The notes: a model not told the origin generated them from the sequence alone. Positions 1,464 through 58,574 are shown, counted from the stretch's first letter. The stretch is DNA of 64,000 nucleotides from an uncultured Actinomycetes bacterium (GCA_963769985.1 CAVYNR010000007.1:6762-70761), one strand, 5' to 3'. Translations and numbers: made by a program.

Positions 1464-1480
1464 TCTGATGCGTCGTCAGA
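1464..1480. promoter_or_regulatory. palindromic operator candidate TCTGATgcgtcGTCAGA (site 1 of 7)
   Basis: Lies in the divergent gap between echA20 (-) and the SDR at 1514 (+). One core mismatch. Preceded by the -10-like TAGTTT. Confidence 0.5.
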
Positions 1481-1513
1481 TTCCGTGAGCAAGGTAGCTC
1501 AGAAGGGGAATGC

Positions 1514-2254
1514 ATGGGCATTGCACTCGACATGAGCGGGCTGGTCGTGCTCGTGACCGGTGGTGCCCGCGGTGTTGGCCGCGGCATCAGCGACGTCTTC
1601 GCGTCCGCCGGCGCGACGGTCGTGATCTGTGGGCGCACCGAGCCCGAGGGCGGCCCGGAGTTCATCGCATGCGACGTACGCGAGCCGGAGCAGGTGGACG
1701 CGCTCGTGAGCACGATCGTCGACCGACATGGTCGGCTCGATGCCGTCGTCAACAACGCCGGCGGCTCGCCCGCGGCCGACGCCGCGACCGCCTCCCCCCG
1801 CTTCTCGGCGTCGATCATCGGACTGAACCTGTTGGGTCCGCTGCACGTGTCCCAGCGCGCCAACGCGGTTATGCAAGAACAGCCCGACGGCGGCGCGATC
1901 GTGAACGTGGGCAGCGTGAGCGCACTGCGGCCGTCGCCGGGAACCGCCGCCTATGCGGCGGCCAAGGGAGGCCTCATCAGCCTGACCCAGACGCTGGCGG
2001 TCGAGTGGGCGCCCAAGGTACGAGTGAACTTGGTGACCGGCGGCATCATCGCCACCGAGCAGTCCGAACTCTTCTACGGCGACGAGTCGCGGCAGGCCGC
2101 GATCGCAAAGACGATCCCCGCCGGGCGCATGGGCGAACCGCTCGACATCGCAAACGCGTGCGTGTTCCTCGCGTCTCCGTTGGCGAGCTATATCAGCGGC
2201 GCCAACCTCGTGGTGCACGGCGGCGGCGAACCGCCGCGCTACCTCGAAGCGTAG
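1514..2254 (+). CDS. short-chain dehydrogenase/reductase (Rv3549c-like position)
   Basis: Intact 246-aa ORF with VLVTGGARGVGRGI cofactor motif and YAAAKGG catalytic motif. Divergent from echA20. Confidence 0.85.
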   Translation: MGIALDMSGLVVLVTGGARGVGRGISDVFASAGATVVICGRTEPEGGPEFIACDVREPEQVDALVSTIVDRHGRLDAVVNNAGGSPAADAATASPRFSASIIGLNLLGPLHVSQRANAVMQEQPDGGAIVNVGSVSALRPSPGTAAYAAAKGGLISLTQTLAVEWAPKVRVNLVTGGIIATEQSELFYGDESRQAAIAKTIPAGRMGEPLDIANACVFLASPLASYISGANLVVHGGGEPPRYLEA

Positions 2255-3456
2255 GTATCCAACGCGCGCGCGGCGGCGCGCGGGCCATCGGCTCCCTGAA
2301 GTTCACGGGCCAAACTACCGGCACGCGCTCGAATCCCGGCGTCGTTGACGGCAGTGTGCAACCGTCCGACAAGCCTGGCGCGTGTCAGGCGCTTGGCCGG
2401 CAACGGCTTCGGACCCGCGCCCAGCTCGGCTATGCGTTTGCCGAAATAGAACTGGTCGGTGATGTGGGGCACGATCACCTGTGGCAATCCGACCCGCGCC
2501 GCCATCGCGGTGGTGCCCGCCCCGCCGTGGTGCACGATCACGGCCATGCGGGGCAGGAGACGCCGATGGTTGACTCCCGTCACCCAGTGAACGTTGTCGC
2601 CACTCGCACCGTTCCCCAGGCCACCCCAGCCCTGATCGAGCACCGCGCGCAGACCGCTCTCCTCCAAGGCTCCAACCACCAGCGACGTGCGCGCGTCTGG
2701 ATCGCCCGCGGGCATGCTCCCGAATCCGATGTAGACCGGCGGCGGCCCGGCCGTCAGAAACGCCTCGAGCCCTGCATCCAACGCGGCGCCATCATCTTCG
2801 AGCAGGCAGGCGCCGAGAGGTGACGTGCCGCGGTGGCGGGGGGCGACGATGGCTTGGTCGTAGAGACCGAGCACGAGTGGCGACGACGTGATGGACTCCA
2901 GGAGCCGTGTTGGACCGCTCTACGTCCCGCCCGCGAGTAGGTGTCCACGGCGACGTCGCGAAACAGCCGGTCGAAGACCGCGTTCTGCGCGCCCCACAAC
3001 ATCGCGTTGACGGCTCGACCGCCGCCGTGGAGCGGCACGAAGTGAGGCGGTAGTCCCGCCGCGCGCTCGTTCGTCAGGCGCGAACGACGCGTACACGTAG
3101 CGGATGCCCTGGCTGGCGCACAGAGGCGGCGCGAATAGCTGGAGGCCGGCGCCGACGACCACATCGACGTCGCGACACGCGGCATCGAGCGCGTCGAGCG
3201 CGATTCCCGCTGCTGGTCGAAGCTGTCGACCGGCGCGAAGAAGATCCCGGAGTCCACCGTCTAACCCGGTTGATAGATCCTGCGCGTCGACATCAATCGG
3301 CAGGAAGCGAATGCCTCGTCGCTCGAACACGTCACGAAAGTCGCGCGTCGTGCACGCGGTAACCTCCCAGCCCGCGGCCAGCAATTCGGTGCCGAGAACC
3401 GCCAGCGGCACGACGTCCCCCGTGCTGCCAATCGGAGCGAGCGCTACGCGCTTCAC
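2239..3456 (-). CDS. GT1-family (MGT/sterol-glucosyltransferase-like) glycosyltransferase, frameshifted in this assembly
   Basis: N-terminal fragment 2920..3456 (MKRVALAPIGSTGDVVPLAVLG...), middle piece in frame 2754..3257, C-terminal fragment 2239..2874 (VIVHHGGAGTTAMAARVGLPQVIVPHITDQFYFG, the UDP-sugar motif). At least two frame changes. The 3' end overlaps the convergent SDR by 16 nt. Confidence 0.7.
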
Positions 3457-3589
3457 CGCCAGCTCAGACGAGGCGCTGCGGCGCGGAAGCGTGCTGGGAG
3501 CCGTGCGAGCATCGACAACAACGGTAGACGGCCGCGTTCGACTTGCTGTCCGGCACCACGACGAACACGCGAGCCTCTAGCGTGCCGCC

Positions 3590-4506
3590 GTGATCCGTGT
3601 TGCCAACGTGTCGAAGCGGTATGGCGACACGACCGCGCTCTGCGAAGTTGACCTTGCGGTGGATGCCGGCGAGATCGTCACGCTTCTCGGGGCGAACGGT
3701 GCCGGCAAGACAAGTTTGCTTTCGCTCATCGCAGGGCTCCGCCGACCTGACGACGGAAACGTGACCATCGGTGACGCAGCCGGCGATCCCCGGTTGCCGT
3801 CGGTGCGAGCGATGCTCGGGTTCGCGCCGCAGGAACTTGGGATTTATCCCGGAATCAGCGTCGCGGCCAACATTCTCTTTTTTGCAGAACTCTCCGGCAT
3901 GCGCGGCCCACGCGCACGCATCCGCGTCGAGGAAACGGCCGCCGATCTCGGGCTCACCGACCTGCTGGCACGTCGAGCGGGTGGACTATCGGGTGGCGAG
4001 CGGCGCCGAGTGCACGTTGCTATGGCGCTCGTACACCGGCCGAGTGTGGTCGTGCTCGACGAACCAACCGCAGGCGTCGATGTTACGGCGCGCGGCGACC
4101 TGGTGAGCCTGGTTCGCGCGTCGCCGAGCGCGGCGCCACGGTCGTCTATTCGACGCACTACCTGGCGGAAGCTGAGGCTCTCAATGGGCGCGTTGCCGTG
4201 TTACATCGTGGTCGAAAGGTTGCCGACGCTCCGCTGCACGCGCTCACGCAGGGCCTGCCCGGTCGCGTGAAGCTGACGTTTGACGGTGGAGCGCCGATGC
4301 TGGCGCTCGACGCCGCGTTGTGCCCCACGCTCGACGGCAACGTGTTGACGATCAGTACCCCGGAACCGGAGCGTCATGCGGCCACGGTTCTCGCCGCCGC
4401 GGCGGGACACGTCGAACGTCTGCGCTCGGTCCGCATCCTGCCTGCCAGCCTCGAGGACGTCTACGTCGCGGCGACCGGTGAAGCGTTGGCCGAGGAGGGT
4501 CGATGA
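3590..4506 (+). CDS. ABC transporter ATP-binding protein (DrrA/ABC-2 exporter type), one frameshift near 4110
   Basis: Walker A GANGAGKTS, signature LSGGERRRV, Walker B VVVLDEPTAGVD in ORF 3590..4270. The sequence continues as ERGATVVYSTHYLAEAEAL...VLHRGRKVAD in ORF 4198..4506. Confidence 0.8.
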
Positions 4507-7246: not shown

Positions 7247-8397
7247 GACTCGTCGACGCCTGAGAACGCCCCGGGGTCGTAACCCCACTCGTCGAAGGCG
7301 AAGGCCCACTCCGAAGCAATTCGTTCCGCCATGTCAGCATCGAGACGAAACCGTCCGGGCTGATATCCCTCAATCTCGACCAGGTACGCCCGGAGCTTGG
7401 GCTCAAACGCCGGCCAGCCGCCAAGGTCGAGTTCCTCGTAGATGCGCCGGAGCGTCGCGACGGGATCGGTCACCAGATCTTCGTATCGAATCTCTGCGTA
7501 CTGGCCCGCAGGGACCAACGATCGTTGGGCAATATGGGCTTGCATCAGACTCCTGTACTCCCGAAAGAAGAACTCCCGGAGGTCGTTGTCGTCGTGGCTC
7601 GCGAGCTCCATGATGTGTGCACCCGCCTCGATCGCGTGCCACGCCGACAAATAGACCCCGTAGGGGTGTCGGACAATGTGGAGGATCGGCGCGTCCGGCC
7701 ACCGCTCGAGGATTTGCGGCAGCCACGCGGTATTCCACGGGTTCTTCGCGACTAAGCGCTTGCCGTCATCGAGCCAGGACGCCTTGCGGAATACGGCATC
7801 GCGGGTGCGTTCCCATCGCCGCTTTTCCCGAAGTGTCAAGCCCTGCATAAGCGCCCACTTGTCGAAATACCTTTCCGCGTTGCGAGGGAAGTAGAGGAAG
7901 CCTCCGATACCCGTTCCCGAAAGCTGGTCGAGAGATAGTTCCTCCTCGTCGGGCTGGTCCGGGTACACGTCCATATCATCCATGGGGCGTGTTGCAGGGC
8001 CCATCCCGGTTAAGAATCGGTCGGCCAACGGGCGGCCCGTTGCACACATGGCGGGGAAGATGGCCTGTCGAAACCTAAGGAAGCCGAACTGGTCGTCGCA
8101 GGCGAGAAGGCGAAAGAGCATCGTCGTACCCGAGCGGGCATGACCAACCACGAACAAGGGCGACTCTTGCATCACGTGTCTGCGAAGCGGGCGGTACGTC
8201 GCAATCGTCTCTGCTAGTCGTACCGGCGCCAGGACCGACGTCACGCCTAGTAGCAGTGCCGCCCGCGGCCAGTTATCGATGCTGTTGCGGTTCTGCCAAA
8301 ACATCCGAATGAGGTTCGTCGTCCGGGCGCCCGCCATTGGCGAAACGATGTCGTGTTCAATCCGGCGTCGGACAGACGCGATCGTCGGTCGGCTCAC
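7243..8397 (-). CDS. sulfotransferase family protein (copy 2, tandem paralogue)
   Basis: Intact, with the same motifs as copy 1. By eye roughly three quarters identical to copy 1. The GTG at 8397 overlaps the TGA of the upstream SDR (GTGA). Confidence 0.8.
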   Translation of the reverse strand: MSRPTIASVRRRIEHDIVSPMAGARTTNLIRMFWQNRNSIDNWPRAALLLGVTSVLAPVRLAETIATYRPLRRHVMQESPLFVVGHARSGTTMLFRLLACDDQFGFLRFRQAIFPAMCATGRPLADRFLTGMGPATRPMDDMDVYPDQPDEEELSLDQLSGTGIGGFLYFPRNAERYFDKWALMQGLTLREKRRWERTRDAVFRKASWLDDGKRLVAKNPWNTAWLPQILERWPDAPILHIVRHPYGVYLSAWHAIEAGAHIMELASHDDNDLREFFFREYRSLMQAHIAQRSLVPAGQYAEIRYEDLVTDPVATLRRIYEELDLGGWPAFEPKLRAYLVEIEGYQPGRFRLDADMAERIASEWAFAFDEWGYDPGAFSGVDES

Positions 8398-9170
8398 GGG
8401 TGTTGCGAGCTGACGGACAGAACCTCGCCCGTCATGTAGCTGGCGTAATCGCTCGCAAGGAAGATGATGACGTTGGCGACTTCCCACGGCTCAGCGGCGC
8501 GGCCGAAGGCCTCCTTCGCTGTGAGCTCTTCCAGCAGTTCCTCGGTCGTCACCTTCGACAAGAACTCGTGCATGGCGAGTGAAGGCGCGACCGCGTTGAC
8601 GCGCACGCCGAAGGGTGCGGCCTCGATGGCCGCCGAGCGGGTCAGCGCCATGACACCGGCCTTGGCCGCCGCGTAGTGCGCCTGGCCCGCCTGCGCGCGC
8701 CAACCGATGACCGACGCGTTGTTCACGATCGAACCCGACCCCCGTGCTGTCATGTGACGAAGGGCGGCGCGCGTGCAGCGCATCGTGCCGTTGAGCGTGA
8801 CGTCGACGACGGACGACCACTGCTCGTCGGTCATCTCCGCGAGATTCGCAGTACCGCCGAGGCCGGCATTGTTGACGGCCACGTCGATGCCGCCGTGCTG
8901 GCTGACGGCGGCGTCGAACAGCGCCTGCACTTGGGCTTCATCGGTAACGTCGCAGGCGACCGCGAGCGGGCGCGCGCCCATGATCGGTTCCAACGACTCG
9001 GCCGCTTCGTTGAGTCGGCGCTCGTGCCGGTCGCTCAGCACCACGACCGCGCCCTCTTCGGCGCAGCGCTTGGCCGTGGCAAACCCGATGCCGGTGCCGG
9101 CAGCGGCGGTGACCAGCACGATGCGATCACGCAGCAGGTTGTGACCCTCGACGTAGGGAGGCGAGGTCAC
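8394..9170 (-). CDS. short-chain dehydrogenase/reductase
   Basis: GTG at 9170 gives VTSPPYVEGHNLLRDRIVLVTAAAGTGIGFATAKRC...YAAAKAGV...; 258 codons, intact. Track ORF 8394..9503 is a chimera of this gene and the upstream gene's tail. Confidence 0.8.
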   Translation of the reverse strand: MTSPPYVEGHNLLRDRIVLVTAAAGTGIGFATAKRCAEEGAVVVLSDRHERRLNEAAESLEPIMGARPLAVACDVTDEAQVQALFDAAVSQHGGIDVAVNNAGLGGTANLAEMTDEQWSSVVDVTLNGTMRCTRAALRHMTARGSGSIVNNASVIGWRAQAGQAHYAAAKAGVMALTRSAAIEAAPFGVRVNAVAPSLAMHEFLSKVTTEELLEELTAKEAFGRAAEPWEVANVIIFLASDYASYMTGEVLSVSSQHP

Positions 9171-10074
9171 GCACGTTGGGCTTGTCACCCGATGCCGCGG
9201 CCTTGGCCATCTCCTCGAGACGGGCGAGCATCGGCATCTTCTCCTGGCCGACGGTGCCGTCGATCCGCGCCTCGATCTCCTCGGGCGTCCAGCGGCCGTC
9301 GGTGTACATCGCGCGCAACCCGTTGGTTGGTTCCACACCGCAATCTTGCCGCCGACGGCCGTGTACACCTGGCCAGTGATGTGGCGCGACTTGTCGCCGA
9401 GCAGATACACCACGAGCGGCGCCACGTCTTCGGGCTCACCCATTTCCGCCAGCTCCATCGGCACGTTGGCCGCCATCCGCGTACCGCGCGATCGGCGCCA
9501 CACAGTTGGCGGTGACGCCGTACTTGTTGAGGCCGAGCGCCACGCTACGCGTCAACGACACGATGCCGCCCTTGGCCGCCGAGTAGTTCGCCTGCGCGAC
9601 GCTGCCCTGGAACGCGCCGGACGTGAACCCGATCAACGACCCGGAGTTCTGCTTGCGCATCACCGCGGCCGCGGCGCGGAAGACCGTGAACGTGCCCTTC
9701 AGGTGCGTCTCGACTACCGGGTCGAACTCTTCCTCGGACATGTTGAACAGCATCCGTTCGCGCAGGATGCCGGCCACGCACACCACGCCGTCGATCCGGC
9801 CCCACTCGTCGATACCGGCCTGCACGATGCGCTCCCCACCCGCCATCGTGGTGACGGATTCGGCGATCGCGATCGCCGAGCCGCCAATTTCGCCGATCTC
9901 CTTGACGACGGCGTCGGCGACTTCGCTGGTGGGGTCCTCGCCGGCCATGCCGACGCCGTAATCGGCCACGACCACCCGGGCACCCTCGGCCGCGCAGGCC
10001 AACGCAACCGCTCGACCGATTCCTCTACCGGCACCCGTGATCGCAACGACTTTGTCCTGCAAATAACCGCTCAA
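9127..10074 (-). CDS. SDR of the MFE-2/Hsd4A-like 3-hydroxyacyl-CoA dehydrogenase type, about 2 frameshifts
   Basis: ORF 9436..10074 (KVVAITGAGRGIGRAVAL...YSAAKGGIVSLTRS) continues out of frame as TRMAANVPMELAEMGEPEDVAPLVVYLLGDKSRHITGQVYTAVGGKIAVWNQP, then RAMYTDGRWTPEEIEARIDG (ORF 9127..9336). Confidence 0.7.
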
Positions 10075-10095: not shown

Positions 10096-10112
10096 TCTGA
10101 CGCGACGTTAGC
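10096..10112. promoter_or_regulatory. palindromic operator candidate TCTGACgcgacGTTAGC (site 2 of 7, weakest)
   Basis: Lies in the divergent gap between the SDR operon (-) and fadD19-like (+). The right arm is degenerate. Confidence 0.35.
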
Positions 10113-10163: not shown

Positions 10164-11780
10164 GTGGAGTACCACCTGGCCGATCTGTTCGAGTACGCGG
10201 TCGACAATTTCGGCGAGCGCGACTTCGTCATCTGCGACGGAAAACGCCGCACGTACACGCAAATGGAGGAGCGGGCGAACCGCCTCGCGCACCACTTGCA
10301 GGCGGCCGGCGTGAAGCCCGGCGACCACGTCGGCATCTACTCGCTCAACTCGGTCGAGTGGATCGAGATCATGTGGGCGGTCTTCAAGATCCGCGCCGTG
10401 TGGATCAACATCAACTTCCGCTACGTCGAGGAGGAACTGCGCTACCTGTTCACCAACGCCGATCTGGTCGCGCTCGTGCATCAGCGCCAGTACTCACCAC
10501 CGCGTCGAAGGGGTGCTCCCGCACCTGCCGGACTTGAAGCACATCGTCACGATCGACGACGGCAGCGACGTCGCTGCGCCCACCGGCGCGATCGACTACG
10601 AGGACGCGGTCGCCAGCGGCTCACCCGAGCGTGACTTCGGTCCCCGCTCACCCGACGACCACTACATCCTCTACACGGGCGGCACGACCGGTATGCCCAA
10701 AGGGGTCGTGTGGCGGCAAGAAGACGTGTTCTTCGCGCTCGGCGGCGGCCTCGACCTGCCCACCGGCAACCGCGTAGCCAGCCCCAAGGGCATGGTCGAG
10801 CGCGGCCTCGCCAACGGACCGATCACGATGCTGCCGATCGCGCCGCTCATGCACGGCGCGACGCAGTGGGGCCTGATGCAGGGCGCGTTCATCGGAAACA
10901 AGCTCGTGCTCGTGCCCGAGTTCGACCCCGCCGAGGTGTGGCGGCTCGTGGGCGAGGAGCAGGTGAACGTCGTGATGATCACCGGCGACGCGATGGGTCG
11001 TCCGCTGGTGGAGGAACTCGACAACGAGGATGCGAACTACGACCTGTCGTCGTTGATCGCGCTGTCGTCGACGGCGGCGGTGTTCTCGCCGAGCGGTGAA
11101 GGACCAGTTCTTCAAGCGCTTGCCGAACCTGATCATGACCGACTCGGTCGGTTCGTCCGAAGGCGGCGCCAACGGGCTGACCTACGTGTCGAAGGACAAC
11201 ACCGCGATGAAGGGCGGCCCGACAGTCACCCCGAACGAAGACACCGCGGTGTTCGACGACGACGGCAACCGCGTGCAGCCGGGCTCCGGCGTGATCGGCA
11301 AGATCGCGCGCAGCGGCCCCGTCCCCATCGGGTACTACAAGGATCCTGAAAAGACCGCCGAGACATTCATCCAACTCGAAGGGCGTCGCTGGTCGGTACC
11401 GGGCGACTTCGCACAAGTCGAAGCCGACGGCACGATCACGCTGCTCGGCCGCGGTTCGGTGTCGATCAACTCGGGCGGCGAGAAGATTCACCCCGAAGAG
11501 GTCGAGGCCGCGGTGAAGTCGCACCCCGACGTGTGGGACGCGGTAGTCGTCGGCGTGCCCGACGAGCGCTGGGGTCAACGCGTGGCGGCGGTCATCCAGG
11601 CTCGTGCAGGCGTGTCGTCCTGACCTCGAGTCGATTCAAGAGCACTGCCGACTGTCGATCGCCCGTTACAAGGTGCCGCGCGAACTGCACGTCGTGGACG
11701 AGATGGTGCGTTCACCCAGCGGCAAGCCCGACTACCGCTGGGCCCTCAATATCGCTACCTCTGCAACCGCAATTTCCTAG
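10164..11780 (+). CDS. fadD19: steroid-side-chain acyl-CoA synthetase (FadD19-like), about 3 frameshifts
   Basis: Fragments 10164..10634, 10513..11349 and 11096..11623, plus a tail DLESIQEHCRLSIARYKVPRELHVVDEMVRSPSGKPDYRWA ending at TAG 11778. Blocks NFRYVEEELRYLF, YTGGTTGMPKGVVWRQED, GRGSVSINSGGEKIHPEEVE match my recollection of Rv3515c. Confidence 0.75.
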
Positions 11781-11789
11781 GAGCCAACC

Positions 11790-12898
11790 GTGCATACCGA
11801 TCTCTGCGACATGTTCGGCATCGACCTGCCGATCTTCGCCTTCAGTCATTGCCGCGACGTCGTGGCCGCCGTCAGCAAGGCGGGCGGCCTCGGCGTGCTC
11901 GGCGCGCTCGCGTTCACCAACGAGCAGTTGGAGATGGAGCTCAACTGGATCGACGACAACATCGGCGGCAAGCCCTACGGCGTCGACGTCGTGATGCCGG
12001 CGACCTACGAAGGCGCCGGCAACCTCGATCCCGAGCACATGGAAGAACAGCTCGAGGCGATGATCCCGCAGCAGCACAAGGACTGGATCAACAAGGTTCT
12101 CGACGAGAACCACGTTCCGCCGATGCCGGCCGACGAAGAGGTGCACGGCCTCCTCGGTTGGACGCATGAAGGCGCCCGTCCGCAGGTCGACATCGCGCTG
12201 GCCCATCCGATCAAGCTGCTCGTCAACGCGCTCGGCCCGCCCCCAAAGACATCGTCGACCTCGCCCACGAGCACGGCGTGAAGGTGGCCGCGCTCATCGG
12301 CAGCGTGCAGCAGGCGCAGCGTCAGGTGAACCAGGGCGTCGACATCATCGTCGCCCAGGGCCACGAAGCGGGCGGCCACACCGGCGAGATCGCGTCGATG
12401 GTGTTGCTGCCCGAAGTGGTCGACGCGGTCGCGCCCGTCCCCGTGCTCGGCGCCGGTGGCATCGGCCGCGGTCGACAGATCGCGGCCGCGATGGCGCTCG
12501 GCGCGCAGGGCGTGTGGACGGGTTCGGTGTGGCTCACCACCGCGGAGAGCGACATGCAGCCGATGGTCGTGGAGAAGCTGTTGGCGGCGTCGTCGCGCGA
12601 CACGGTGCGGTCGCGTTGCATGACCGGCAAGCCGGCGCGTCAGCTGCGCACCGGCTGGACCGACGCGTGGGAAGCCGAAGACGCGCCGGGCTTCCTCCCG
12701 ATGCCGCTGCAGTACCTGGCGACGGCCGAAGCGCAGCGCCGCATCGGCCGGTCGGGCAACCGCGAGCTGACCGGCATTCCCGTCGGTCAGATCGTCGGCT
12801 CGATGAACGAGGTGCGTCCGGTGAAGGACGTCATCTTCGAGATGGTCGAAGAGTTCATCGACGCCAGCGAGCGCGTGGCCAAGCTCGGCCAGGAGTAA
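11790..12898 (+). CDS. nitronate monooxygenase-family flavin oxidoreductase (IpdC-like?), one frameshift near 12240
   Basis: ORFs 11790..12281 and 12278..12898 join as ...NALGPPPKDIVDLAHEHGVKVAALIG...AQGHEAGGHTG if one base is added at the C5/A3 run at 12240..12247. AGGAG lies 7 nt upstream of the GTG. Confidence 0.7.
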
Positions 12899-12908
12899 AC
12901 AAGTCGGC

Positions 12909-14892
<1,984 letters not shown>

Positions 14893-20986: not shown

Positions 20987-21542
20987 GGGTTACAGATCGG
21001 CAGGGCGACAAGCGACGTTGTCGCGGCGTTGACCTTCTTCAGGCCTTTGCGGCCGGCGACGGCTTGGCAGTCGGTGCGGTGGTACAGCGTGCCCTTGGCC
21101 GTGGCCACGTAGGTCTGCGAGGGGACGAGTTCGGCTACGAGTGACGACGTGTCGGCGCCGCCGGCACAGCAACTCCTCGATGCGTTCGAGCACGACGCGT
21201 GTCTCGGCGGTGTCGCGACGCGTCGCGCGCACGAGCTGCGTCATCCAGTAGGCGAAGTAGGCGAACCCGCCGCTGAACACGAGGCCGAGCCCGAGCATGC
21301 CGCCGCTGATCGAATACGGGATCTGCTCGTACACGTTGGGCGTGTGCGACGCGCCCCACCATCCGAGGAAGATGAAGACCAGGCCGAGCGGCGCGGCGAT
21401 CGAGCCGATGAACAGCAGGACGCGGGCGGCGTCGGTGGCGCTGCGTGCGCGTGCGCAGCGACGAGATGGCACGCGTCAGCCGGCGTTGACGGCTGGTGCT
21501 GTCGTCGGCGTCGAAACCGATATCGGAGGTGGCGGTCGTCAT
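20983..21542 (-). CDS. small membrane protein with C-terminal Cys/His motif domain, 2 frameshifts
   Basis: ATG 21542 with AAGGAG upstream: [19 protein letters not shown].... Two TM segments ([42 protein letters not shown]). Tail in another frame: [43 protein letters not shown], stop 20983. Confidence 0.5.
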
Positions 21543-21565
21543 CGAAACTCCTTGTGGCAGGCCAG

Positions 21566-22263
<698 letters not shown>

Positions 22264-22276
22264 ACGCCGGGCGCGG

Positions 22277-26250: not shown

Positions 26251-26253
26251 GTG

Positions 26254-27782: not shown

Positions 27783-27796
27783 TATTGTGACACACG

Positions 27797-31470: not shown

Positions 31471-31472
31471 GC

Positions 31473-32658: not shown

Positions 32659-32660
32659 GA

Positions 32661-33866: not shown

Positions 33867-33961
33867 TACTTACCCGGGCGGGCGCCCGCAGGCCCGCCCT
33901 CCTCCCAAGCATGGGGCCCCTCGCTCCGCTCGCCCCATGCGGGCCGTCCATACGGCAACAG

Positions 33962-34933: not shown

Positions 34934-34950
34934 TCTGACAACCCGTCAGA
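34934..34950. promoter_or_regulatory. palindromic operator candidate TCTGACaacccGTCAGA (site 4 of 7, perfect)
   Basis: Lies 3 nt from the KstR-like box. The -10-like TAGTTT overlaps its left edge. Confidence 0.6.
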
Positions 34951-49799: not shown

Positions 49800-51345
49800 C
49801 TACACTGGAGAACCGGGAACGCAGTTCGTGCTTGAGCACTTTGCCCGTCGGGTTGCGCGGCAACGCGTCGACGTACTCGACCTGCTCGGGCACCTTCTGG
49901 ATCATCAGGCCCTTGCCGGTGAGGAAGTCGGCGATTTCCTTCAGACCGACCTGCGCCATCGGCGTCGGCGGGCACGACCACGGCGCACGCGATCTCCGCC
50001 CGCGAGGGGTCGGGCAGGCCGATCACCGCGACATCGGCGATCTTGTCGTGCGTGAACAGCAGGTCTTCGACTTCTTTGGCGCTGATGTTCTCGCCCTTGC
50101 GGATGATGATGTCCTTGAGGCGACCGGTGATGCGCACGTTGCCGTCGGCGTCGATCACGCCGAGGTCGCCGGTGCGGAACCAGCCGTCCTCGTCGAACGC
50201 GTCGGCGTCGAGCGACGGGTCGAGGTAGCCCTTCATCAGCTGCGGCGCCTTGGCGCGGATCTCGCCTTCTTCGCCGATGCCGGCGACCTTGCCTTCGAGC
50301 GTGACGGCGCGCAGCTGCCACGCCGCGCGTGGCGCGGCCTTCGGTGTCGGCGCGAGCACTTCGTCGGTGTCGGTGACGCTGCGCCATGGCGATGATCGGC
50401 GCCTCGGTGAGCCCGTAGCCCGACACGATGCCGACGCCGCCGAGTTCGTTCTTCAGGTCGTAGTGCAGCTGCGGCGGCTTGGGCGCGCCGCCGCCAGGGA
50501 AGGCGCGCACGTTCGGGAACAGCTTCGTCGTCCGGGCTGCGCGCGCTGCGCGGCGAGGTACGCCATGTGGAACGTCGTGCCCGAGCCGGCGAGCGTGACG
50601 CCTTCGCGCTGCCAGCACCGGCGGCGTGGTCACGGGATCGAACGCCTCGACGAGGATCGTGCGGCAGCCTTCGAGCAGCGTCGAGAACAGCCACGTGATC
50701 CCGCCGATGTGCGTGAAGGGGAACACCAGCCCGCTGCGGTCGTCGGCGGTGAGCGCGATGCGCTCGTTCATCGCGATGGCCGTCGCCATGATCGTGGCGT
50801 CGGTGTGCTGCGCGCCCTTCGGGTCGGCGGTCGTGCCCGACGTGTAGAAGAGCCAGCGGACGGGGTCGTCGTCTGCTCGAGCGGCCGCAGGCGGCAGCAG
50901 CGACGGATCGCCGCCCGGCAGCTCCTTGTCGGCGGTGAGCACGTCGAGGCCGTCGACCTCGCCCGCGATCTCGTTGGCCATGGCGAGGAAGTCGAAGCCG
51001 CGCCACTCGCTCGGCACGACCAGCAGCTTGCGTCTTGGCCTGCTGGCACACGAAGGCGACCTCGCGCTTGCGGTAGATCGGCAGGATCGGGTTCTGCACC
51101 GCGCCGAGGCGGGCCAGCGCGCCGACGAGCACGAACGACTCGATCCACGTCGGCAGCTGCCACGACACCACGTCGCCCTGGCCGACGCCGTGCGCGGCGA
51201 ACCCGGCGGCGGCGCGCTCGACGGCTTCGCGGTACTCGGCGAAGGTCATCGTCCGCTCGTCTTGGTCGACGAGCATCACGGCGTCGGGCGTCGCCGCCGC
51301 CCGCTTGGTCGATGAGATCGACCAGAGTCCGGTGGCCTCGATCAT
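49800..51345 (-). CDS. AMP-dependent acyl-CoA synthetase/ligase, several frameshifts
   Basis: ATG 51345: MIEATGLW.... Then WLFYTSGTTADPKGAQHTD, GIVSGYGLTEAPII, GWFRTGDLGVIDADGNVRITGRLKDIIIRKGENISAKEVE, LPRNPTGKVLKHELR. The stop is assigned to TAG 49800 after a frame change. Confidence 0.65.
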
Positions 51346-53079
51346 CTGCGCCGCTCCTGTGAGGACGGTTTCGGTGTCGCGGCCCGAGCGCAGGATCGCG
51401 CCCGGCGTGGCGCCGGTCGCCTTGCCGTCGGCGACGGTCTCGACGCCGTTGACGAGCACGCGCACGACGCCGATCGAATCGGCGGTCAGGCGCTTGGCGT
51501 CGCCGGGCAGGTCGGCCACGAGCGTGGCGGGCTCGGAGTCGATGGTCGCGGGGTCGAACACGACGAGGTCGGCGTGGTTGCCGACTTCGATGCGGCCGCG
51601 GCCCTTGAGCCCGAACAGCCGCGCCGGCGCGTCGGTGATCATCTGGATCGCCTTCTCGACGGGCACGAGCTTGCGGCCGCGCAGCATGTCGCCGACGAAC
51701 CGCGTCGTGTACGGCGCGCCGCACATGCGGTCGAGGTGGGCGCCGGCGTCGGAGCCGCCGAGCATGGCCCGGTCGTCCTCCCACACCTGCTGGCGCAGCT
51801 CCCACGTGTCGGGGTCGTTGTCGGGCGGCATCGGCCACAGCACCGTGCGCAGTTCGTCGTTGCACACGATCTCGACGAGCACGTCGAACGGGATCGCCGC
51901 CGCGCTCGTCGGCCACGTCCTGCACGACGCGGCCCTTCAGCCCCTCGTTCTGCGGCGAGTAGGTGTCGCCGATGACGTACTTGCCGAAGTAGGTGAGGCG
52001 CTTGAACACGCCCGCTTCCTTGCTGCGGCCCTTCTCGATCAGCTCCTTGCGCACCTCGGGGTCGCGCAGCTTCTCCATGCGCTCGGCGACGGGCAGGCTC
52101 ATCACGTCTTGCCATCCGGGGATGAGGAACAGCGCGCAGTGCGTGCCGAAGCTCATGTTCATCGGCACGAGCACCGGCATGGTCAGCGCCACGATCTCGC
52201 CGCCCGCGTTCGCGCGCCTGCGTCGACGCGTCGAGTTGGCGCGTCACACGTTCGGGCACGCGGGCGTCGACGGTCAACACGTTCCAGTTGATCGGGCGGC
52301 GCGCCGCCACGCTCATGCCGACGAGCAGGTCGATCTCGTCGTCGCTGAACTGGTCGAGGCAGCCCTGCACGATGCCCTCGAGCGTCGTGCCTTCGTGCTC
52401 GCCGGTGACGCGTGCACAGGCGCAGCAGTTCTTCGGGCGTCGCCCAGCGCGACGCGACCGGTTGGCCGTCGCCGTCGGAGTGGGTGCTGGACAGCGTGGT
52501 CGAGAAGCCGAGCCCGCCGGCGCGATCGACTCGCCGCAGCACGCGCGCCATCTCGTCGAGCTGCTCGGGCGTGGCTTCGTTGCCGATGGCGTCGGCGCCC
52601 ATCACGTAGCGGCGCAGGCCGCAGTGGCCGACGAGGAACCCGGCGTTGACCGCGGTGTTGCCGTCGAGCGCGTCGAGGTACTCGCCGAACGTCTCCCAGC
52701 TCCACGGCACGCCCGTCTCGAGCGCTTCCAGCGGCATGCCTTCGACCTTGGCCATCATGCGGCGGATGTAGTCGCCGTCCTCGGCGCGGATCGGCGCCAG
52801 CGTGAAACCGCAGTTGCCGCCGATGACCGTGGTCACGCCGTGCACGTTCGACGGCGTGGCGAACGGGATCCCAGAACAGCTGGGCGTCGTAGTGCGTGTG
52901 CGGGTCGACGAAGCCGGGGCAGACGATCGAGCCCGTCGGCGTCGAACACGGTCTCGGCGGCCTCGTCGATGTCGCCGACGCCGACGATCATTCCGTCCGC
53001 ACGCCGACGTTGCCGACGTAGCCCGGAGCGCCCGTTCCGTCGATGATGGTGGCGCCTCGCGAACGAGGTAGTCGAGCAT
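51342..53079 (-). CDS. large metal-dependent amidohydrolase (N-acyl-D-amino-acid deacylase family-like), several frameshifts
   Basis: MLDYLVR/GATIIDGTGAPGYVGNVGV, PGFVDPHTHYDAQLFWDP, NVHGVTTVIGGNCGFTLAP, LGGSDAGAHLDRMCGAPYTTRFV, GNHADLVVFDPATI. Confidence 0.65.
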
Positions 53080-53093: not shown

Positions 53094-53110
53094 TCTGACG
53101 CACCGTCAGG
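53094..53110. promoter_or_regulatory. palindromic operator candidate TCTGACgcaccGTCAGG (site 5 of 7, perfect core)
   Basis: Lies in the divergent gap between the amidohydrolase-led 10-kb operon (-) and the LLM at 53129 (+). Confidence 0.6.
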
Positions 53111-53128: not shown

Positions 53129-53992
53129 TTGCGGCATCGGCATCACGACGTTCGTGACGGATTACACGATCGACATCGTGACGCTTGGCGCGGGCCGTCG
53201 AGGAGCGCGGGTTCGCCTCGTTGTACCTGCCCGAGCACACCCACATCCCGGCGAGTCGCGGCGACGCCGGCGCCGACGGGTGACGAGAGCTCGGCCAGGC
53301 GTACAGCCACCTGGTCGACCCGTTCGTGTCGCTGGCCGCGGCGGCCGCGGTGACCTCGACGCTCACGCTCGGCACCGGCGTGTCGCTGGTGGCGCAGCAC
53401 GACCCGATCGATGCATGGCCAAGCAGGTCGCCACGCTCGACGACCTCTCGCGGCGGCCGGTTCGTGCTCGGCGTCGGGCTTCGGCTGGAACCGCGAGGAG
53501 ATGGCGTCCCACGGCGTCGACTACGCGCCGCCGCCGCGACGTCGTGCGCGAGAAGGTGCTCACGATGAAGGCGCTGTGGCGCGACGACGAGGCGTCGTTC
53601 GGCGGCGAGCACGTGCAACTCGAGCCGAGTTGGCAGTGGCCCAAGCCCGTCCGCGGCGACGTGCCGGTCCTCATCGGCGGTGCCGCGGGCCCGAAGCTGT
53701 TCGCCGCCATCTGCGACTACGCCGACGGCTGGATCCCGATCGGCGGCGCCGGTCTGTCGAAGACGTTGCCCGAGTTGCGCGCGCAGTTCGAAGCCGCCGG
53801 CCGCGATCCGTCGACGCTGCGCTGCGTGCCCGTTCGGCACGATCCCCGACGCCGGCAAGCTCGATCACTACCGCGTCCTCGGCATCGACGAAGTCGTCCT
53901 GCGCATCAACGAAGGCCCGACTGACGACGTCCTCCGCCGCTCGACCTCGCACCGCGGTCCTGCGAGCTGGTCGCGTCACTCTTCGGGCGTAG
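53129..53992 (+). CDS. LLM-class (likely F420-dependent) oxidoreductase, about 4 frameshifts; ends approximate
   Basis: GITTFVTDYTIDIVTLG, AVEERGFASLYLPEHTHIPASR, LTLGTGVSLVAQHDPI, KALWRDDEASFGGEHVQLEPSWQWPKP...ADGWIPIGG. GGAGG lies upstream of TTG 53129. Confidence 0.6.
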
Positions 53993-55072
53993 ACGGCGAA
54001 CTGATCGCTGATCGACAGGACGCCGCGGGCGACGTCGCCGTGGTGGAGGTCGTCGATGGCGGCGTGGACGTCGTCGAGCTTGTAGGTCTTGGTGACGAGC
54101 TCGTCGAGCTTGAGGCGGCCGGCGAGGTACAGGTCGACGATCATCTTGAAGTCGTGGTGCGGACGGGCCGATCCGTAGCGGCAGCCCATGATCGTCTTGT
54201 CGAGGTACATCGACGACACGTTGAACGCGGCCTCGGTCCCCTGCGGCGGCACGCCGAGGATCACGCACGTGCCGGCCCAGTCGAGCAGGTCGATCGCGGT
54301 GCGGATGAGCGCGGGGTGGCCGACGCACTCGAACGCGAAGTCGACGCCGGCCGTTGCAGATCGCCTTCACGCCCTCGGTCGGCGTCGACCTTCGACGCGT
54401 CGACGAAGTGCGTGGCGCCGAACGCGCGCGCCAACTCTTCCTTCGCCGGGTTGGTGTCGACGGCGATGATCGGCAGCGCGTCGGCGAGGCGCAGGCCCTG
54501 GATCACGTTGAGGCCGATGCCGCCGACGCCGATGACGACGGCCGATTGGTCGTGCGTCACCTTCGCCCGGTTCAGCACCGCGCCGACACCGGTGACGACG
54601 CCGCAACCGATCAGCGACGCCACCTCGAGCGGCACGCCCTTGTCGATGGGCACGCACTGGTTCGCCTTGACGACCGTGTACTCGGAGAACGACGACACGT
54701 TGGCAAACGCGTAGGCCGGTTCACCGTCGAGCGTGAACGGCTGCGGGCGCTGACCGAACGTCGAGCGGCACATCGTGGGATGGCCCGACGTCGCAGTACC
54801 GACACGCGCCGCAGTTGCCGAGCGTGGACAGCACGACGTGGTCGCCGACCTTCACCGACGTGACCGCCGACACCGATCTCCTCCACGACGCCCGCGCCTT
54901 CGTGACCGAGCACGACCGGCGTCGGGAACGGGATCGTTCCTTCGATCACCGACAGGTCGCTGTGGCACACACCCGACGCAGCGATGCGCACGCGGACTTC
55001 GTTGGCGCCGGGGTCGCGTACCTCGATGTCACGGACCTTCGTTTCGGTCCCGTCGAAGACGACGCCTCTCAT
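53976..55072 (-). CDS. zinc-dependent alcohol dehydrogenase (class III/medium-chain type), about 4 frameshifts
   Basis: The ATG at 55072 overlaps the ALDH TGA (ATGA): MRGVVFDGTETKVRDIEVRDPGANEVRVRIAASGVCHSDLSVIEGTIPFPTPVVLGHEGAGVVEEIG. Then SAVVIGVGGIGLNVIQG and ILGVPPQGTEAAFNVSSMYL. Confidence 0.7.
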
Positions 55073-56531
55073 GTTGCCCACACCACCGACTGCAGCTCGC
55101 TGTACGCGTGCAGGCCGAACGACCCGCCGTCGCGCCCGACGCCGCTCATCTTGAAGCCGCCGAACGGCGCCTCGTGGTTGCGCTGCGCGGTGTTGATGCC
55201 GACGTTGCCCGAGCGCAGTCGCTTGGCCACGTCCATGCCCTTGCTGTCGTCACCGGTGAACACGTAGTCGTACAGGCCGAACGGGGTGCTGTTGGCCAGC
55301 GCGATCGCCTTCGTCGTCGTCGTCGAAGGCCAGGGCGACGACGACCGGGCCGAAGATCTCTTCCTGCACCGGCGTCATGCCCTGCCGGCAGCCGGCAAGC
55401 AGCGTCGGAGCGACGTAGTAGCCCGGCGCGATGTCAGGGCGTTCGCCACCGGCGAGGACCTCGGCGCCCTCGTCGCGACCTGTCTTCACGTAGCCCTCGA
55501 TGCGGTCGCGGGCGGCGGCAGAGATGACCGGGCCGACGAGCGTGTCGGGCGCCAGCGGGTCGCCCACCTTCAGGTACTTCGCCGCCGCCGCCAGCTTCTC
55601 GACCAGCTGGTCGTAGATGCCGCGCTGCGCGATGACGCGCGTCGGCGCCGTGCAGATCTGGCCGGAGTGGAAGCCCCACGTGCTGGCGATGCCGCCGACG
55701 GCGAGCGTCGACCGACGCGTCGTCGAACACGAGCGCCGCGCCCTTGCCGCCGAGTTCGAGCAGCAGCCGCTTCATCGTGCGCGCCCCCGCTTCGGCGATG
55801 CGCACGCCGACGCTCGTCGAGCCGGTGAAGCTGATCATGTCGACGTCGGCGCGACTCGACCAGCGCCTCGCCCGTCTCGGGCGTCGAACCGGTCACGATG
55901 TTTACGACGCCCGGCGGAAAGCCCGCTTCTTCGAGCACGGCGACCAGTTCGAGCACGGCGAGCGGGTTCTGCGGCGCCGGCTTGATGACGCACGTGTTGC
56001 CCATCGCCAGCGCCGGGCCGATCTTGCCCGCCGCGTTCACGATCGGGAAGTTGTACGGCGTGATGCACGCGACGACGCCGACGGGTTGGCGGATGGCGAC
56101 CGCGCCGACGATGCCGCCGGGCGCGAGCGCGGTGGCCTGCGCCTGCTGCGGTGGCAGCGGGATCTGGTTCGGCTCGACCTGCGCGTAGCGACGGAAGCGC
56201 TGCGCCACGATCGGCACCTGCATCGTCGACGCGACGCGCATCGTCGCGCCGGTCTCGGCCTGCACCAGCGGCACCAGTTCGTCGTTGCGCGCCATCAGCA
56301 GATCGGCGGCGCGCGTGCAGCAGCGCGGCACGCTCGTGCTGCGACGTGCGCGACCACGGCCGAACGCGTCGCGCGCCGCCGCCGCCGCCGCTTCGGCGTC
56401 CGAGCGCGAGCACTCGGGCGCGTGGCCGACCACTTGCTCGGTGGCCGGGTTGATGACGTCGTAGGTGCCCTTGCCCGCCTCGACCCACTCGCCGCCGATG
56501 AAGACCGTGCCCGGCTTCGTTTCCCGGTCAT
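55069..56531 (-). CDS. NAD(P)-dependent aldehyde dehydrogenase, about 5 frameshifts
   Basis: MTG/ETKPGTVFIGGEWVEAGKGTYDVINPATEQVVG (needs one extra G in the run at 56523-56525), VACITPYNFPIVNAAGKIGPALAMGNTCVIKPA, FTGSTSVGVRIAE, LLLELGGKGAALVFDDA, EEIFGPVV. Confidence 0.7.
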
Positions 56532-57759
56532 GAAACGGGCAGCGATCTTGTCGAAGTCCAACTCGAACAGCTTGATCGCGTTGCCGCGCACGATCTTGTA
56601 ATGCGTCTCTTCGGGCAGATGACCCATCAGCTTCTTCGCCACTTCAAGCGTGTGCGGCCACGTCGAGTCGGAGTGCGGGTAGTCGGTCTCGAACGTGATG
56701 TTGTCGACGCCGACGGCGTCGAGGTTGTCAAGCCCGTGCGTGGTCGTCGAAGAAGCAACCGGTCATGTTCTTGAAGTAGTAGGTGCTCGGCGGCTCGGGG
56801 ATCTTGTCGGCCACGCCGCCCCACGCGCGGTTGTCCTCCCACACCTTGTCGGCGCGCTCGAGGATGTAGGGGATCCACCCGATCTGGCCTTCGGAGTACG
56901 CCAGCTTCACCTTCGGGTACTTCACCAGCAGCCCGCTGAACAGCCAGTCGGTCATCGACATCATCGCGTTGTTGAACGTCAGCGTTGATCCGACCGCGGG
57001 CGGCGCGTCAGCCGACGTCGAGGGCATCTTCGACGACGACCCGATGTGCATGTTGATCACGGTGCCGGTCTCGGCGCACGCCTCGACGAACGGCTCCCAG
57101 TAGCCGTTGGCGTCGTGCACCGACGGCAGTCCGAGGAACGGCGGGATCTCGCTGAAGCACGTCGGCGCGCACGCCGCGCGCCGCGTTGCGACGCACTTCG
57201 TCAGCGGCCAGCTCCGCGTCCCACAGCGGCACGATGATCAGCGGGATCAAGTCGGCCGCCGGTGCCGGCGCACCACTCGTCGACCATCCAGTCGTTGTAG
57301 GCCTGCACGCAGAGCAGCGCGAGTTCCTTGTCCTTGGCCTCGGTGAAGGTCTGGCCGCAGAAGCGCGGGAAGCTCGGGAACGCCAGCGACGCTTCGACGT
57401 GGTTGACGTCCATGTCCTCGAGGCGGGCGACGGGATCCCAGCAGCCCTTGCGCATCTCCTCGTAGGTGATCGCGGTGATCTTCACCTCGTCGCGCGGGAA
57501 GCCGGCCGCGGCCGACAGGCGCGTCGTCGGGATCTTCAGGTCCTCGTAGTACCACCAGTCGCAGTCGGCGCCTTCGCCCGCGGAGTACGGAGAACTTGCC
57601 GCCGACGAACACCATCTCGCCGAGCTTGGCCCGCACCGACCGCGGACCGCTCTCCTTGTACTTCTCCGGCAGCCGGTCCTGCCACACGTTCGGCGGCTCG
57701 AGCACGTGGTCGTCGACCGAGATGATCTTGGGAAACGTTTCGTCCGGGTGCTGCGTCAC
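56528..57759 (-). CDS. amidohydrolase_2 (ACMSD-like metal-dependent hydrolase/decarboxylase) family protein, about 4 frameshifts
   Basis: VTQHPDETFPKIISVDDHVLEPPNVWQDRLP, VNHVEASLAFPSFPRF, INMHIGSSSKMPSTSADAPPAVGSTLTFNN, AYSEGQIGWIPYILERAD, FETDYPHSDSTWP. Paralogue of the gene at 63263. Confidence 0.65.
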
Positions 57760-57778
57760 GTGGGGAGCGTAACGGGTT

Positions 57779-57795
57779 TCTGACGGTCCGTCAGG
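57779..57795. promoter_or_regulatory. palindromic operator candidate TCTGACggtccGTCAGG (site 6 of 7, perfect core)
   Basis: Lies 20 nt upstream of the amidohydrolase_2 GTG and overlaps the stop codon of the upstream SDR. Confidence 0.55.
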
Positions 57796-58556
57796 TGCGA
57801 CCCGAGGCGGCGGCGGCGCCGCCGTCGACCGGCATCGCCATGCCCGTCACGTACGACGCGCTGCTCCGAGCACAACCACACGACGGCGGCGGCGATTTCC
57901 TCGGGTGTGGCCAGGCGGCCGATCGGCATCATCTTGCCCATCGCCTGCAGCGTCGCCTCGTCGCCGCCGGTGAATCCCTCGAGCATCGGCGTGCGCACGG
58001 TGCCCGGGCACACGGCGTTGATGCGGATGTTCGCGCGGGCGTATTCGAGCGCGGCGGTCTTGGTGAGGCCGATCACGCCGTGCTTGCTGGCCACATACGC
58101 CGACAGCCCGGCGAAGCCCATCAGGCCGGCGCCCGACGACGTGTTCACGATCACGCCGCCGCCGTTGGCCTGCATGACGCGGGAGTCTCGGCGCGCATGC
58201 AGAGGAAGACGCTCACAAGGTTGAGGTCGATGACCCGGCGCCACTCGTCGATGTCGGCGTCGGCGATGTTGCCGAAGTTGCCCGACGTACCGGCGTTGTT
58301 GAACGCGATGTCGAGGCCGTCGCCACGCCGCGGCCACGAGCGCGTCGACCTGCGCCGGGTCGGTCACGTCGGTGCGCACGAAGCGGCGTCGCCGCCGATG
58401 GCGGCGGCCGTCTCTTCGCCGCCGACGCTCGTTGACGTCGGCCACGATCACGGTCGCACGCCTGCTGCGCCCAGCTGAATCGCCGGTCGCCCGGCCGATG
58501 CCGGAACCGCCTCCGGTGACGATCGCGACCTTGCCGGCAAACGCCTGCGCATCCAT
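57791..58556 (-). CDS. short-chain dehydrogenase/reductase, about 3 frameshifts
   Basis: MDAQAFAGKVAIVTGGGSGIGRAT, VRTDVTDPAQVDALVAAA, NTSSGAGLMGFAGLSAYVASKHGVIGLTKTAALEYA, then ASYVTGMAMPVDGG, stop 57791. Confidence 0.7.
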
Positions 58557-58557
58557 A

Positions 58558-58574
58558 TCTGACAATCTGTCAGA
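58558..58574. promoter_or_regulatory. palindromic operator candidate TCTGACaatctGTCAGA (site 7 of 7, perfect; extended ATCTGACA/TGTCAGAT)
   Basis: Centred in the 41-nt gap between two divergent SDR genes. Confidence 0.65.

Follow-up and report, generated by a model that had tools for sequence, protein, structure and literature searches.

What protein reads a palindrome that recurs at the operon heads of a steroid-catabolism-like gene cluster in an uncultured bacterium? The question is raised by a stretch of 64,000 nucleotides from an uncultured Actinomycetes bacterium (GCA_963769985.1, CAVYNR010000007.1:6762-70761), referred to as the window throughout, in which the palindrome TCTGAC-N5-GTCAGA (hereafter the box) stands in seven copies. 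To our knowledge, nearly all that has been learned about how bacteria regulate steroid catabolism comes from Mycobacterium and Rhodococcus, with the repressors KstR and KstR2, and from a few Proteobacteria. The box is proposed here to be the operator of a putative TetR-family repressor encoded at 61966-62655, TetR38 being our name for this TetR_C_38 protein, and a probability of about 0.75 is assigned to this reading. Together, TetR38 and the box are best read from their sequences as a non-orthologous replacement of KstR2 with a wider regulon.

Copies of the Box in the Window

Four perfect copies of the core CTGAC-N5-GTCAG are found in the window (34935, 53095, 57780 and 58559), compared with 0.07 expected from dinucleotide shuffles, and none of 100 such shuffles reached four or more. 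For the 17-mer TCTGAC-N5-GTCAGA, a scan allowing up to two mismatches returned nine matches against 2.26 expected, comprising the seven sites of the preliminary description and two weak extras at 19693 and 27559, the latter inside a gene. Sites 1, 2 and 3 each carry one core mismatch, site 2 having additionally lost the outer A, and the bases flanking the seven sites are A or T in 14 of 14 cases. Scored with a position weight matrix (PWM) of 29 columns trained on sites from other genomes, the seven sites reach 16.1-32.3 bits, and no other position in the window reaches 10 bits. The extended consensus is A-TCTGAC-G-N3-C-GTCAGA-T, a palindrome of 17-19 bp, in whose half-site T3, G4 and A5 are invariant. 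The preliminary description is thereby borne out in its seven copies, all recovered by both scan and matrix, its four perfect and three singly mismatched cores, its A/T flanks, its estimate that the core would occur by chance far less than once per 64 kb, and its failure to find a further full site; the near-miss that it reported inside the gene for a solute-binding protein (SBP) is the match at 27559.

Because the assembly is frameshifted, a mechanical list of open reading frames (ORFs) wrongly runs over several of the sites. Genes were read instead from frame-aware coding segments, Pfam and NCBIfam searches and recognisable protein N-termini, gene calling by ORFs or third-position G+C (GC3) being unsuitable. 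On this frame-aware reading, the edges of all seven sites lie 1-65 nt from a start codon, and sites 1, 2, 5 and 7 stand between divergent start codons in gaps of 50-90 nt (Table 1). The earlier claim that every copy is non-coding and at an operon start holds in that all copies lie upstream of a start codon, with a qualification at site 6, in which the stop codon TGA (57791-57793) of the upstream short-chain dehydrogenase/reductase (SDR) gene falls within one half-site. Scans for sigma-70 promoters at sites 1, 6 and 7 found nothing, so that overlap with promoters is deduced from the start-codon distances alone. None of the seven sites fits the CRP/FNR-type pattern TGTGA-N6-TCACA.

The Box at Orthologous echA20 Promoters

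Site 1 lies, as was first described, between divergent echA20 (PRK07938) and SDR (PRK07856) genes. The counterpart of this gap in Mycobacterium tuberculosis, between Rv3549c and Rv3550, is bound by KstR2 (Rv3557c), the TetR repressor of ring C/D genes in Mycobacterium and Rhodococcus that responds to the CoA thioester of methylhexahydroindanedione propanoate (HIP) (Kendall et al., 2010; PMC3068626). None of the seven sites fits the KstR2 box AnCAAGnnCTTGnT, which at up to one mismatch has a single match in the window, inside a gene (0.53 in shuffles), and none matches the KstR pattern TnnAACnnGTTnnA, a 14-bp palindrome. KstR boxes are present separately at 10142-10155, 19835-19848 and 40158-40171, with a one-mismatch copy at ~34913-34926. 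The first of these stands beside site 2 and the last between site 4 and the start codon. At these two promoters (~10.1 kb and ~34.9 kb) the new box is thus paired with a KstR box, an arrangement that implies dual control. Thus the motif was rightly described as neither a KstR nor a KstR2 box, four KstR-type boxes being distinct from it and no KstR2 box being credited to the window.

Conservation at orthologous promoters in relatives had been set as a test in the preliminary description. It was assessed on 80 metagenomic echA20 loci (L082-L161; 463 kb; EchA20 identity 71-83%; G+C 0.49-0.74), of which 79 have sequence upstream of the gene. In 48 of the 79 the box precedes echA20, 16-106 and mostly 25-45 nt upstream of the start codon, while a KstR2 box occurs at one of these promoters and a KstR-type box at three. 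Across the 463 kb there are 61 strong PWM matches, 45 of them in the echA20/SDR gap and the remainder mostly before ipdA, acyl-CoA dehydrogenase (ACAD) or nitronate monooxygenase (NMO) genes. These counts agree with the earlier suggestion that the motif may replace KstR2 in this lineage. Perfect KstR boxes (TGAAACATGTTCTA) were observed at the echA20 promoter in L100 and L110, and a perfect KstR2 box (ACCAAGCGCTTGCT) in L145. From its sequences, the conserved echA20 promoter looks like a place of operator turnover between lineages.

Association of the Box With TetR38

The only two regulators detected in the window, both of the TetR family, are TetR38 and an orthologue of KstR, the latter having been missed before; no KstR2 gene was found in it. 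Homologues of TetR38 number thousands, mostly in metagenome-assembled genomes (MAGs) of Acidimicrobiales. Loci around 80 of them from GTDB species representatives (Acidimicrobiia and about 20 Streptomyces) were gathered together with contig L001, giving 81 loci and 1.44 Mb. These hold 45 perfect, 77 one-mismatch and 106 two-mismatch copies of the box; by a base-composition estimate ~0.04 perfect copies would be expected, an enrichment of more than 1000-fold. Of the perfect copies, 32 (71%) fall in the 14% of sequence left intergenic by a crude gene call, and most lie 4-50 nt from start codons.

The closest contig with context is L001 (71% identity), which is syntenic with the window. It carries two tandem boxes before an Amidohydro_2-TetR operon, a perfect box at 14065 in the SDR/SDR gap orthologous to that of site 7, another perfect box before a further Amidohydro_2 gene and a box before a ChsH2-type gene. 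Among the TetR38 loci in general, the recurrent neighbours of the box are the divergent pair of Amidohydro_2 and isochorismatase-x-TetR38, an acyl-CoA synthetase facing an Ltp2-like thiolase, aldehyde dehydrogenases, ACADs and TetR38 itself. Homologous Amidohydro_2 genes are preceded by a box in L001, L026, L032 and L040, and boxes adjoin Aldedh orthologues in nine loci. In L029, a homologue of the site 2 synthetase is adjacent to TetR38 and divergent from it, with the box in between. The two data sets meet in L018, where TetR38 and a box-bearing echA20/SDR gap are 5 kb apart, and in L158 TetR38 adjoins the SDR/echA20 pair.

As for the regulator gene, the box is directly upstream of it in L021, L025, L027, L029, L041, L042, L054 and L062, and heads the isochorismatase-x-TetR operon in many Acidimicrobiales. 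In most orthologues of at least 57% identity, it heads the regulator's operon or adjoins the gene upstream. In 20 loci, a KstR orthologue is the divergent neighbour of TetR38; eight of the shared gaps contain the box, and four of these eight also hold a KstR-like box. The protein at 61966-62655 had been named as one candidate binder, and its candidacy is strengthened by the >1000-fold enrichment around its orthologues and by the box at the operon head of most close ones.

More distant members differ in their own promoters. In seven loci of Acidimicrobiaceae (L039, L043, L044, L045, L052, L070 and L078) where kstR and TetR38 are divergent and the box is missing, the element TCGGTACCATGGGCCGCCATG is conserved at the start of TetR38 (~9940-10000). 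The Streptomyces genes start within the near-invariant CGGTAAGCTGACGGCATGACAGG (L046, L049, L053, L057, L069, L072, L075 and L080; ~9930-9995), a degenerate box with three mismatches over a TAAGCT -10-like hexamer and the ATG, which from its sequence may allow weak autoregulation of a leaderless transcript. Boxes also occur elsewhere in Streptomyces loci. That of Streptomyces sediminimaris (L069) has them at 3786, 12448, 17327 and 20454, beside an acyl-CoA synthetase facing an Ltp2-like thiolase, an ACAD facing a thiolase, and a monooxygenase resembling flavin-containing or Baeyer-Villiger enzymes (FMO/BVMO-like). Since the Streptomyces box flanks non-steroid acyl-CoA genes, the family-level function is wider than steroids; the earlier idea of a steroid-pathway regulon stands for the cluster in the window, which is steroid-catabolism-like, and is too narrow for the regulon as a whole, the genes under the box varying from lineage to lineage.

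Features of the TetR38 Protein

The hallmarks of the TetR family, namely a TetR helix-turn-helix (HTH) with an all-helical ligand-binding domain and an inverted-repeat operator of ~15-30 bp near adjacent or divergent starts, are all present here. One recognition helix, TSPATFYQYF, and one N-terminal arm, DGRVPGRRGxATR, are shared without variation by the aligned proteins of Acidimicrobiia and Streptomyces, and the invariant HTH agrees with the invariant T3-G4-A5 of the half-site. The arginine-rich arm (residues 20-35, window 62575-62610) precedes the HTH and is predicted to be disordered, with a predicted local distance difference test score (pLDDT) below 50 for residues 1-24; speculatively, and going by the model, it may contact the conserved A/T flanks of the box.

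An AlphaFold model (pLDDT 83.8) has twelve helices in the canonical TetR fold, and its Foldseek matches are all TetR proteins, EthR being the best, followed by FasR, FadR, PvrA and DesT. Single-sequence matches to the PDB are weak (best E 2.7e-4) and mostly within the N-terminal HTH region, with no KstR2 structure among those shown. When the family profile was compared with the PDB, EthR came out best (E 7.6e-8) and KstR was reached at E 0.03 through the HTH only; the KstR2 structures 2IBD and 4W97 are absent from the 60 profile matches listed (of 83 at E <=1) and from the top 50 fold matches. Judged by these sequence and fold matches, TetR38 is not an orthologue of KstR2 (Rv3557c / ro04598), being unrelated to it beyond the family fold. 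The other TetR protein is the KstR orthologue, and the earlier statement that no KstR2-like repressor is visible in the window is upheld.

Within the repressor operon, the genes for Amidohydro_2, the isochorismatase-like protein, TetR38 and LLM-SDR (LLM, luciferase-like monooxygenase) are tightly packed. A 173-nt 'gap' before the isochorismatase gene was considered as a hidden operator and rejected, as it is the frameshifted 5' part of that gene and has no PWM match. The LLM and SDR form one ORF of 583 aa in the window (60215-61966, minus strand) and two overlapping genes in L001 (10690-12442), so this ORF is either a true fusion or an assembly frameshift.

Points Against TetR38 and Competing Explanations

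Several points weigh against TetR38 as the protein that reads the box. Its binding to the box, its repression and the identity of its effector are inferred from sequence, the effector being a guess. Autoregulation is not visible in the window, because the head of the repressor operon lies beyond base 64000; in addition, the autoregulation-like placement seen in relatives is indistinguishable from regulation of the TetR38 operon by another factor. The clade at 49-55% identity (Acidimicrobiaceae and Streptomyces) mostly has no good box at its own promoter, and 28 of the 79 echA20 orthologues have none either. Co-occurrence of regulator and box was assessed only locally, within the fetched loci. 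Finally, no recognisable canonical steroid genes were found within 20 kb in the Streptomyces locus L069.

The best surviving alternative is that the box is a real operator bound by another factor, outside the window or unrecognised, and that TetR38 is merely one member of its regulon. Such cross-regulation would equally place the box before the regulator operon, and would suit both the many distant TetR38 genes without a box of their own and the box-bearing echA20 contigs, most of which show no TetR38 within 6 kb; these contigs, though, are mostly short. Against another factor speaks the enrichment itself, since the loci were chosen through TetR38 alone. Moreover, the sole regulator detected in the window besides TetR38 is KstR, whose different known box is separately present, TetR dimers typically recognise palindromes built in this way (17 bp, half-sites of 6 bp), and the invariant recognition helix agrees with the invariant half-site across classes. 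Another binder is accordingly regarded as unlikely, and TetR38 is preferred.

It is very improbable that the palindrome works at the level of the nucleic acid, folding into a hairpin (intrinsic terminator, attenuator or repeat of the repetitive extragenic palindromic (REP) kind), and not as a protein site. A stem of 6-8 bp with a loop of 3-5 nt could form, and sites 3, 4 and 6 lie just 3' of a co-directional gene. Nevertheless, no site with a terminator-like T-tract was found in the two regions scanned (site 1; sites 6-7), and four sites stand between divergent start codons, where transcripts do not end. Among 259 sites, 44 changes at core positions 2-6 are uncompensated and one is compensated, a test biased in that selecting sites by a consensus PWM disfavours double changes, which also counts against our reading. 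As core changes are almost never compensated, base-specific recognition by a protein is indicated instead of a hairpin. The box is, furthermore, kept at orthologous 5' regions across the range of G+C given above for the echA20 loci, whereas REP families are lineage-specific.

Still less probable is a reading of the sites as KstR2 or KstR boxes that have diverged, with a likewise diverged orthologue as their binder. Pathway, promoter (the echA20/SDR gap) and protein family are all shared; yet the 6+5+6 geometry departs from 14-bp palindromes with a 2-nt centre, the half-sites differ too, the C-terminal Pfam domain of TetR38 is a different one (TetR_C_38) with EthR as nearest solved relative, and the window contains a genuine KstR orthologue and, separately, boxes for it. 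Chance occurrence of short palindromes in G+C-rich DNA, for which only the shortness of the half-sites speaks, can be dismissed in view of the shuffles, the cross-genome conservation and bimodal PWM scores, with few matches at 8-16 bits and many at 20-36 bits.

Proposed Mechanism and Regulon

A TetR38 dimer would bind A-TCTGAC-G-N3-C-GTCAGA-T with one HTH per TCTGAC half-site. Because the sites are 1-65 nt from the start codons, its binding would block the core promoter and thereby repress the adjoining operons. An intermediate of the pathway would then release TetR38, most likely a CoA thioester from late steroid catabolism, which is favoured because the targets are mostly CoA-dependent enzymes and the fold neighbours include acyl-CoA sensors. 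The proposed regulon would comprise the ring C/D (HIP) genes echA20-ipdA with the divergent SDR, the acyl-CoA synthetase/NMO operon, a side-chain-type beta-oxidation operon, an ABC importer and three amidohydrolase/LLM/SDR/aldehyde-dehydrogenase operons next to the regulator. From this content, TetR38 would fill the role of KstR2 of Mycobacterium and Rhodococcus, acting in parallel with the KstR orthologue of the same cluster.

Like KstR2, the proposed system follows the logic of a TetR-family repressor, uses a palindromic operator in short divergent gaps, occupies (here by position) the promoter pair of echA20-ipdAB and the Rv3549c-type SDR, and coexists with KstR in one cluster. Unlike AnCAAGnnCTTGnT, the box is 17 bp with 6-N5-6 geometry and is unrelated in sequence, and the ligand-binding domain of TetR38 is TetR_C_38, with no specific similarity to KstR2. 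The putative regulon is also larger, with at least seven promoters in 64 kb, including the ABC importer, side-chain-type beta-oxidation and amidohydrolase/LLM/SDR operons, and TetR38 with its box occurs in Acidimicrobiia as well as in Streptomyces, where the target genes are others. KstR (Rv3574; operator TnnAACnnGTTnnA) shares the cluster and the protein family with TetR38, which is a distinct protein with a distinct box.

Among solved structures, EthR (Rv3855) is nearest to TetR38, the likeness being that of an all-helical TetR fold with a long hydrophobic ligand tunnel (TM-score ~0.84 over the EthR chain), at a sequence identity of only ~18%. EthR binds as an octamer to a long region of 55 bp and controls ethA, and we know of no link between it and this box or pathway. 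The acyl-CoA-sensing TetR repressors (FadR of Bacillus and Thermus, FasR, PvrA and DesT) are likewise matched at fold level, without sequence-level orthology and with different operators. What they control is the CoA-dependent catabolism or synthesis of lipids, in keeping with the targets here (synthetases, ACADs, thiolases and hydratases).

Gene Content and Other Features of the Window

By Pfam and NCBIfam searches, the cluster is steroid-catabolism-like, and besides the genes of Table 1 it includes thiolase, P450, sulfotransferase and many LLM, SDR, amidohydrolase and aldehyde-dehydrogenase genes. Its G+C is 0.62-0.71. Throughout the window, single genes are split by frameshifts across two to six frames, and frame switches inside single Pfam domains affect dozens of genes, e.g., at 49961-52872 (minus), 10164-11623 (plus) and 53986-57765 (minus). 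Fragmentation of the same sort is seen in the related ENA contig L001, and suggests that these genes are broken by indel errors of a long-read MAG and are not genuine pseudogenes. The synthetase at site 2 is no longer labelled FadD3, as it passes the cut-off of PRK07798 and not that of the FadD3 model.

Further features were observed at other places. An ORF of 394 aa (34968-36152, minus) directly upstream of site 4, between two catabolic operons, had no match in Pfam or NCBIfam searches; its sequence resembles, by eye, actinobacterial DUF222/HNH-endonuclease proteins (13E12-type), and it may be a mobile insertion. Two tandem sulfotransferase paralogues (Sulfotransfer_3; 6065-7309 and 7243-8487, both minus) are 74% identical over 383 residues. 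A perfect CRP-type palindrome, TGTGACACACGTCACA, lies at 27786-27801, 3 nt from site 3, over the Ltp2 stop codon and before the ABC transporter operon; this single copy is not significant alone, shuffles giving ~1 match at up to one mismatch. A plasmid search gave distant matches only.

Table 1. Operator sites, regulators and proposed target genes, with window coordinates, PWM scores of the sites and distances from site edges to start codons.
Feature	Coordinates	Strand	Sequence	Score	Position and content
Operator site 1	1464..1480		TCTGATgcgtcGTCAGA	26.5 bits	Centred in the 69-nt echA20 (-)/SDR (+) gap; 19 nt to echA20 (ATG 1444), 33 nt to SDR (ATG 1514)
Operator site 2	10096..10112		TCTGACgcgacGTTAGC	16.1 bits (weakest)	SDR (-)/acyl-CoA synthetase operon (+) gap; 21 nt to SDR (TTG 10074), 51 nt to acyl-CoA synthetase (GTG 10164)
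Operator site 3	27766..27782		TCTAACgcaccGTCAGA	26.7 bits	Before the SBP gene of the Liv-type ABC transporter operon (-); 65 nt to SBP (start ~27700)
Operator site 4	34934..34950		TCTGACaacccGTCAGA	25.1 bits	Before the SDR/ACAD/ChsH2/Ltp2 operon (-); 53 nt to Hsd4A-like SDR (ATG 34880)
Operator site 5	53094..53110		TCTGACgcaccGTCAGG	28.5 bits	~50-nt Amidohydro_3 (-)/LLM (+) gap; 14 nt to Amidohydro_3 (ATG 53079), ~20 nt to LLM
Operator site 6	57779..57795		TCTGACggtccGTCAGG	26.7 bits	Before Amidohydro_2 (-), overlaps upstream SDR stop; 19 nt to Amidohydro_2 (GTG 57759)
Operator site 7	58558..58574		TCTGACaatctGTCAGA	32.3 bits	Between divergent SDR genes; 1 nt to SDR (ATG 58556, -), 23 nt to SDR (ATG 58598, +)
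TetR38, candidate repressor	61966..62655	-			229 aa; TetR_N + TetR_C_38 (PF19352), by Pfam
Repressor operon	60215..64000	-			Amidohydro_2 (cut by window end), isochorismatase-like (ATG ~63256), TetR, LLM+SDR
KstR orthologue (context, outside the new regulon)	36705..37292	-		E 3.5e-29	Score against M. tuberculosis KstR, full length; NF033703 best NCBIfam match
Proposed site 1 target	1..1444	-			echA20-type enoyl-CoA hydratase (686-1444; PRK07938, 417 bits), then IpdA-like CoA-transferase subunit off the window edge
Proposed site 1 target	1514..2254	+			SDR, PRK07856 (Rv3549c-like) type
Proposed site 2 target	8394..10074	-			Two SDR genes: PRK07791-like (9436-10074), PRK07831 (~8394-9503)
Proposed site 2 target	10164..13745	+			Acyl-CoA synthetase (PRK07798 type, frameshifted), NMO/IpdC-like reductase, alpha/beta-hydrolase
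Proposed site 3 target	21143..27700	-			Liv-type ABC transporter operon (SBP, permeases, ATPases)
Proposed site 4 target	27797..34880	-			SDR (Hsd4A-like), ACADs, MaoC/ChsH2-like hydratase parts, Ltp2-like thiolase
Proposed site 5 target	49822..53079	-			Amidohydro_3 enzyme, then AMP-binding acyl-CoA synthetase(s), heavily frameshifted
Proposed site 5 target	53130..54138	+			Luciferase-like (F420/FMN) oxidoreductase; start approximate; GGAGG ribosome-binding site ~53121
Proposed site 6 target	53986..57759	-			Amidohydro_2, aldehyde dehydrogenase, Zn-dependent alcohol dehydrogenase
Proposed site 7 target	57791..58556	-			SDR
Proposed site 7 target	58598..60197	+			SDR, then F420-type LLM (TIGR03619)

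Implications

A literature search on the motif, on PF19352 / TetR_C_38 and on steroid regulators in Acidimicrobiia found no description of them, few subscription journals being covered, so that this absence is not proof. A TetR repressor with a palindromic operator is of a familiar kind; what is new is the regulator subfamily, its operator and the proposed replacement of KstR2 at a conserved promoter. More tentatively, and with less than even odds, TetR_C_38 and the box could be an ancient pair, unaltered from Acidimicrobiia to Streptomyces, that serves as master switch of late steroid (HIP) catabolism in the abundant uncultured Acidimicrobiia of soil and freshwater, where it would have replaced KstR2 and added uptake, side-chain and novel amidohydrolase and F420-LLM steps, with a steroid-derived CoA thioester differing from the effector of KstR2. 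On that reading, the box would be a sequence marker by which steroid-degrading capacity and unknown accessory enzymes could be mapped in metagenomes, and TetR38 a new biosensor of steroid metabolites.

Beyond KstR and KstR2, the present results point to a TetR repressor that is the third of its kind and unrelated to those two, and that with its operator would govern ring C/D genes in the widespread, uncultured Acidimicrobiia. If the proposed binding is true, one conserved promoter would present a clear case of non-orthologous regulator replacement, carrying the new box, a KstR box or a KstR2 box according to lineage. By means of the box, the regulon could be delimited cheaply in metagenomes and new enzymes of the pathway could be nominated, the candidates being the Amidohydro_2, isochorismatase-like, F420-type LLM and SDR genes that always travel with the regulator, together with the ABC importer. 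TetR38 would likewise be a candidate sensor protein for steroid-derived metabolites.

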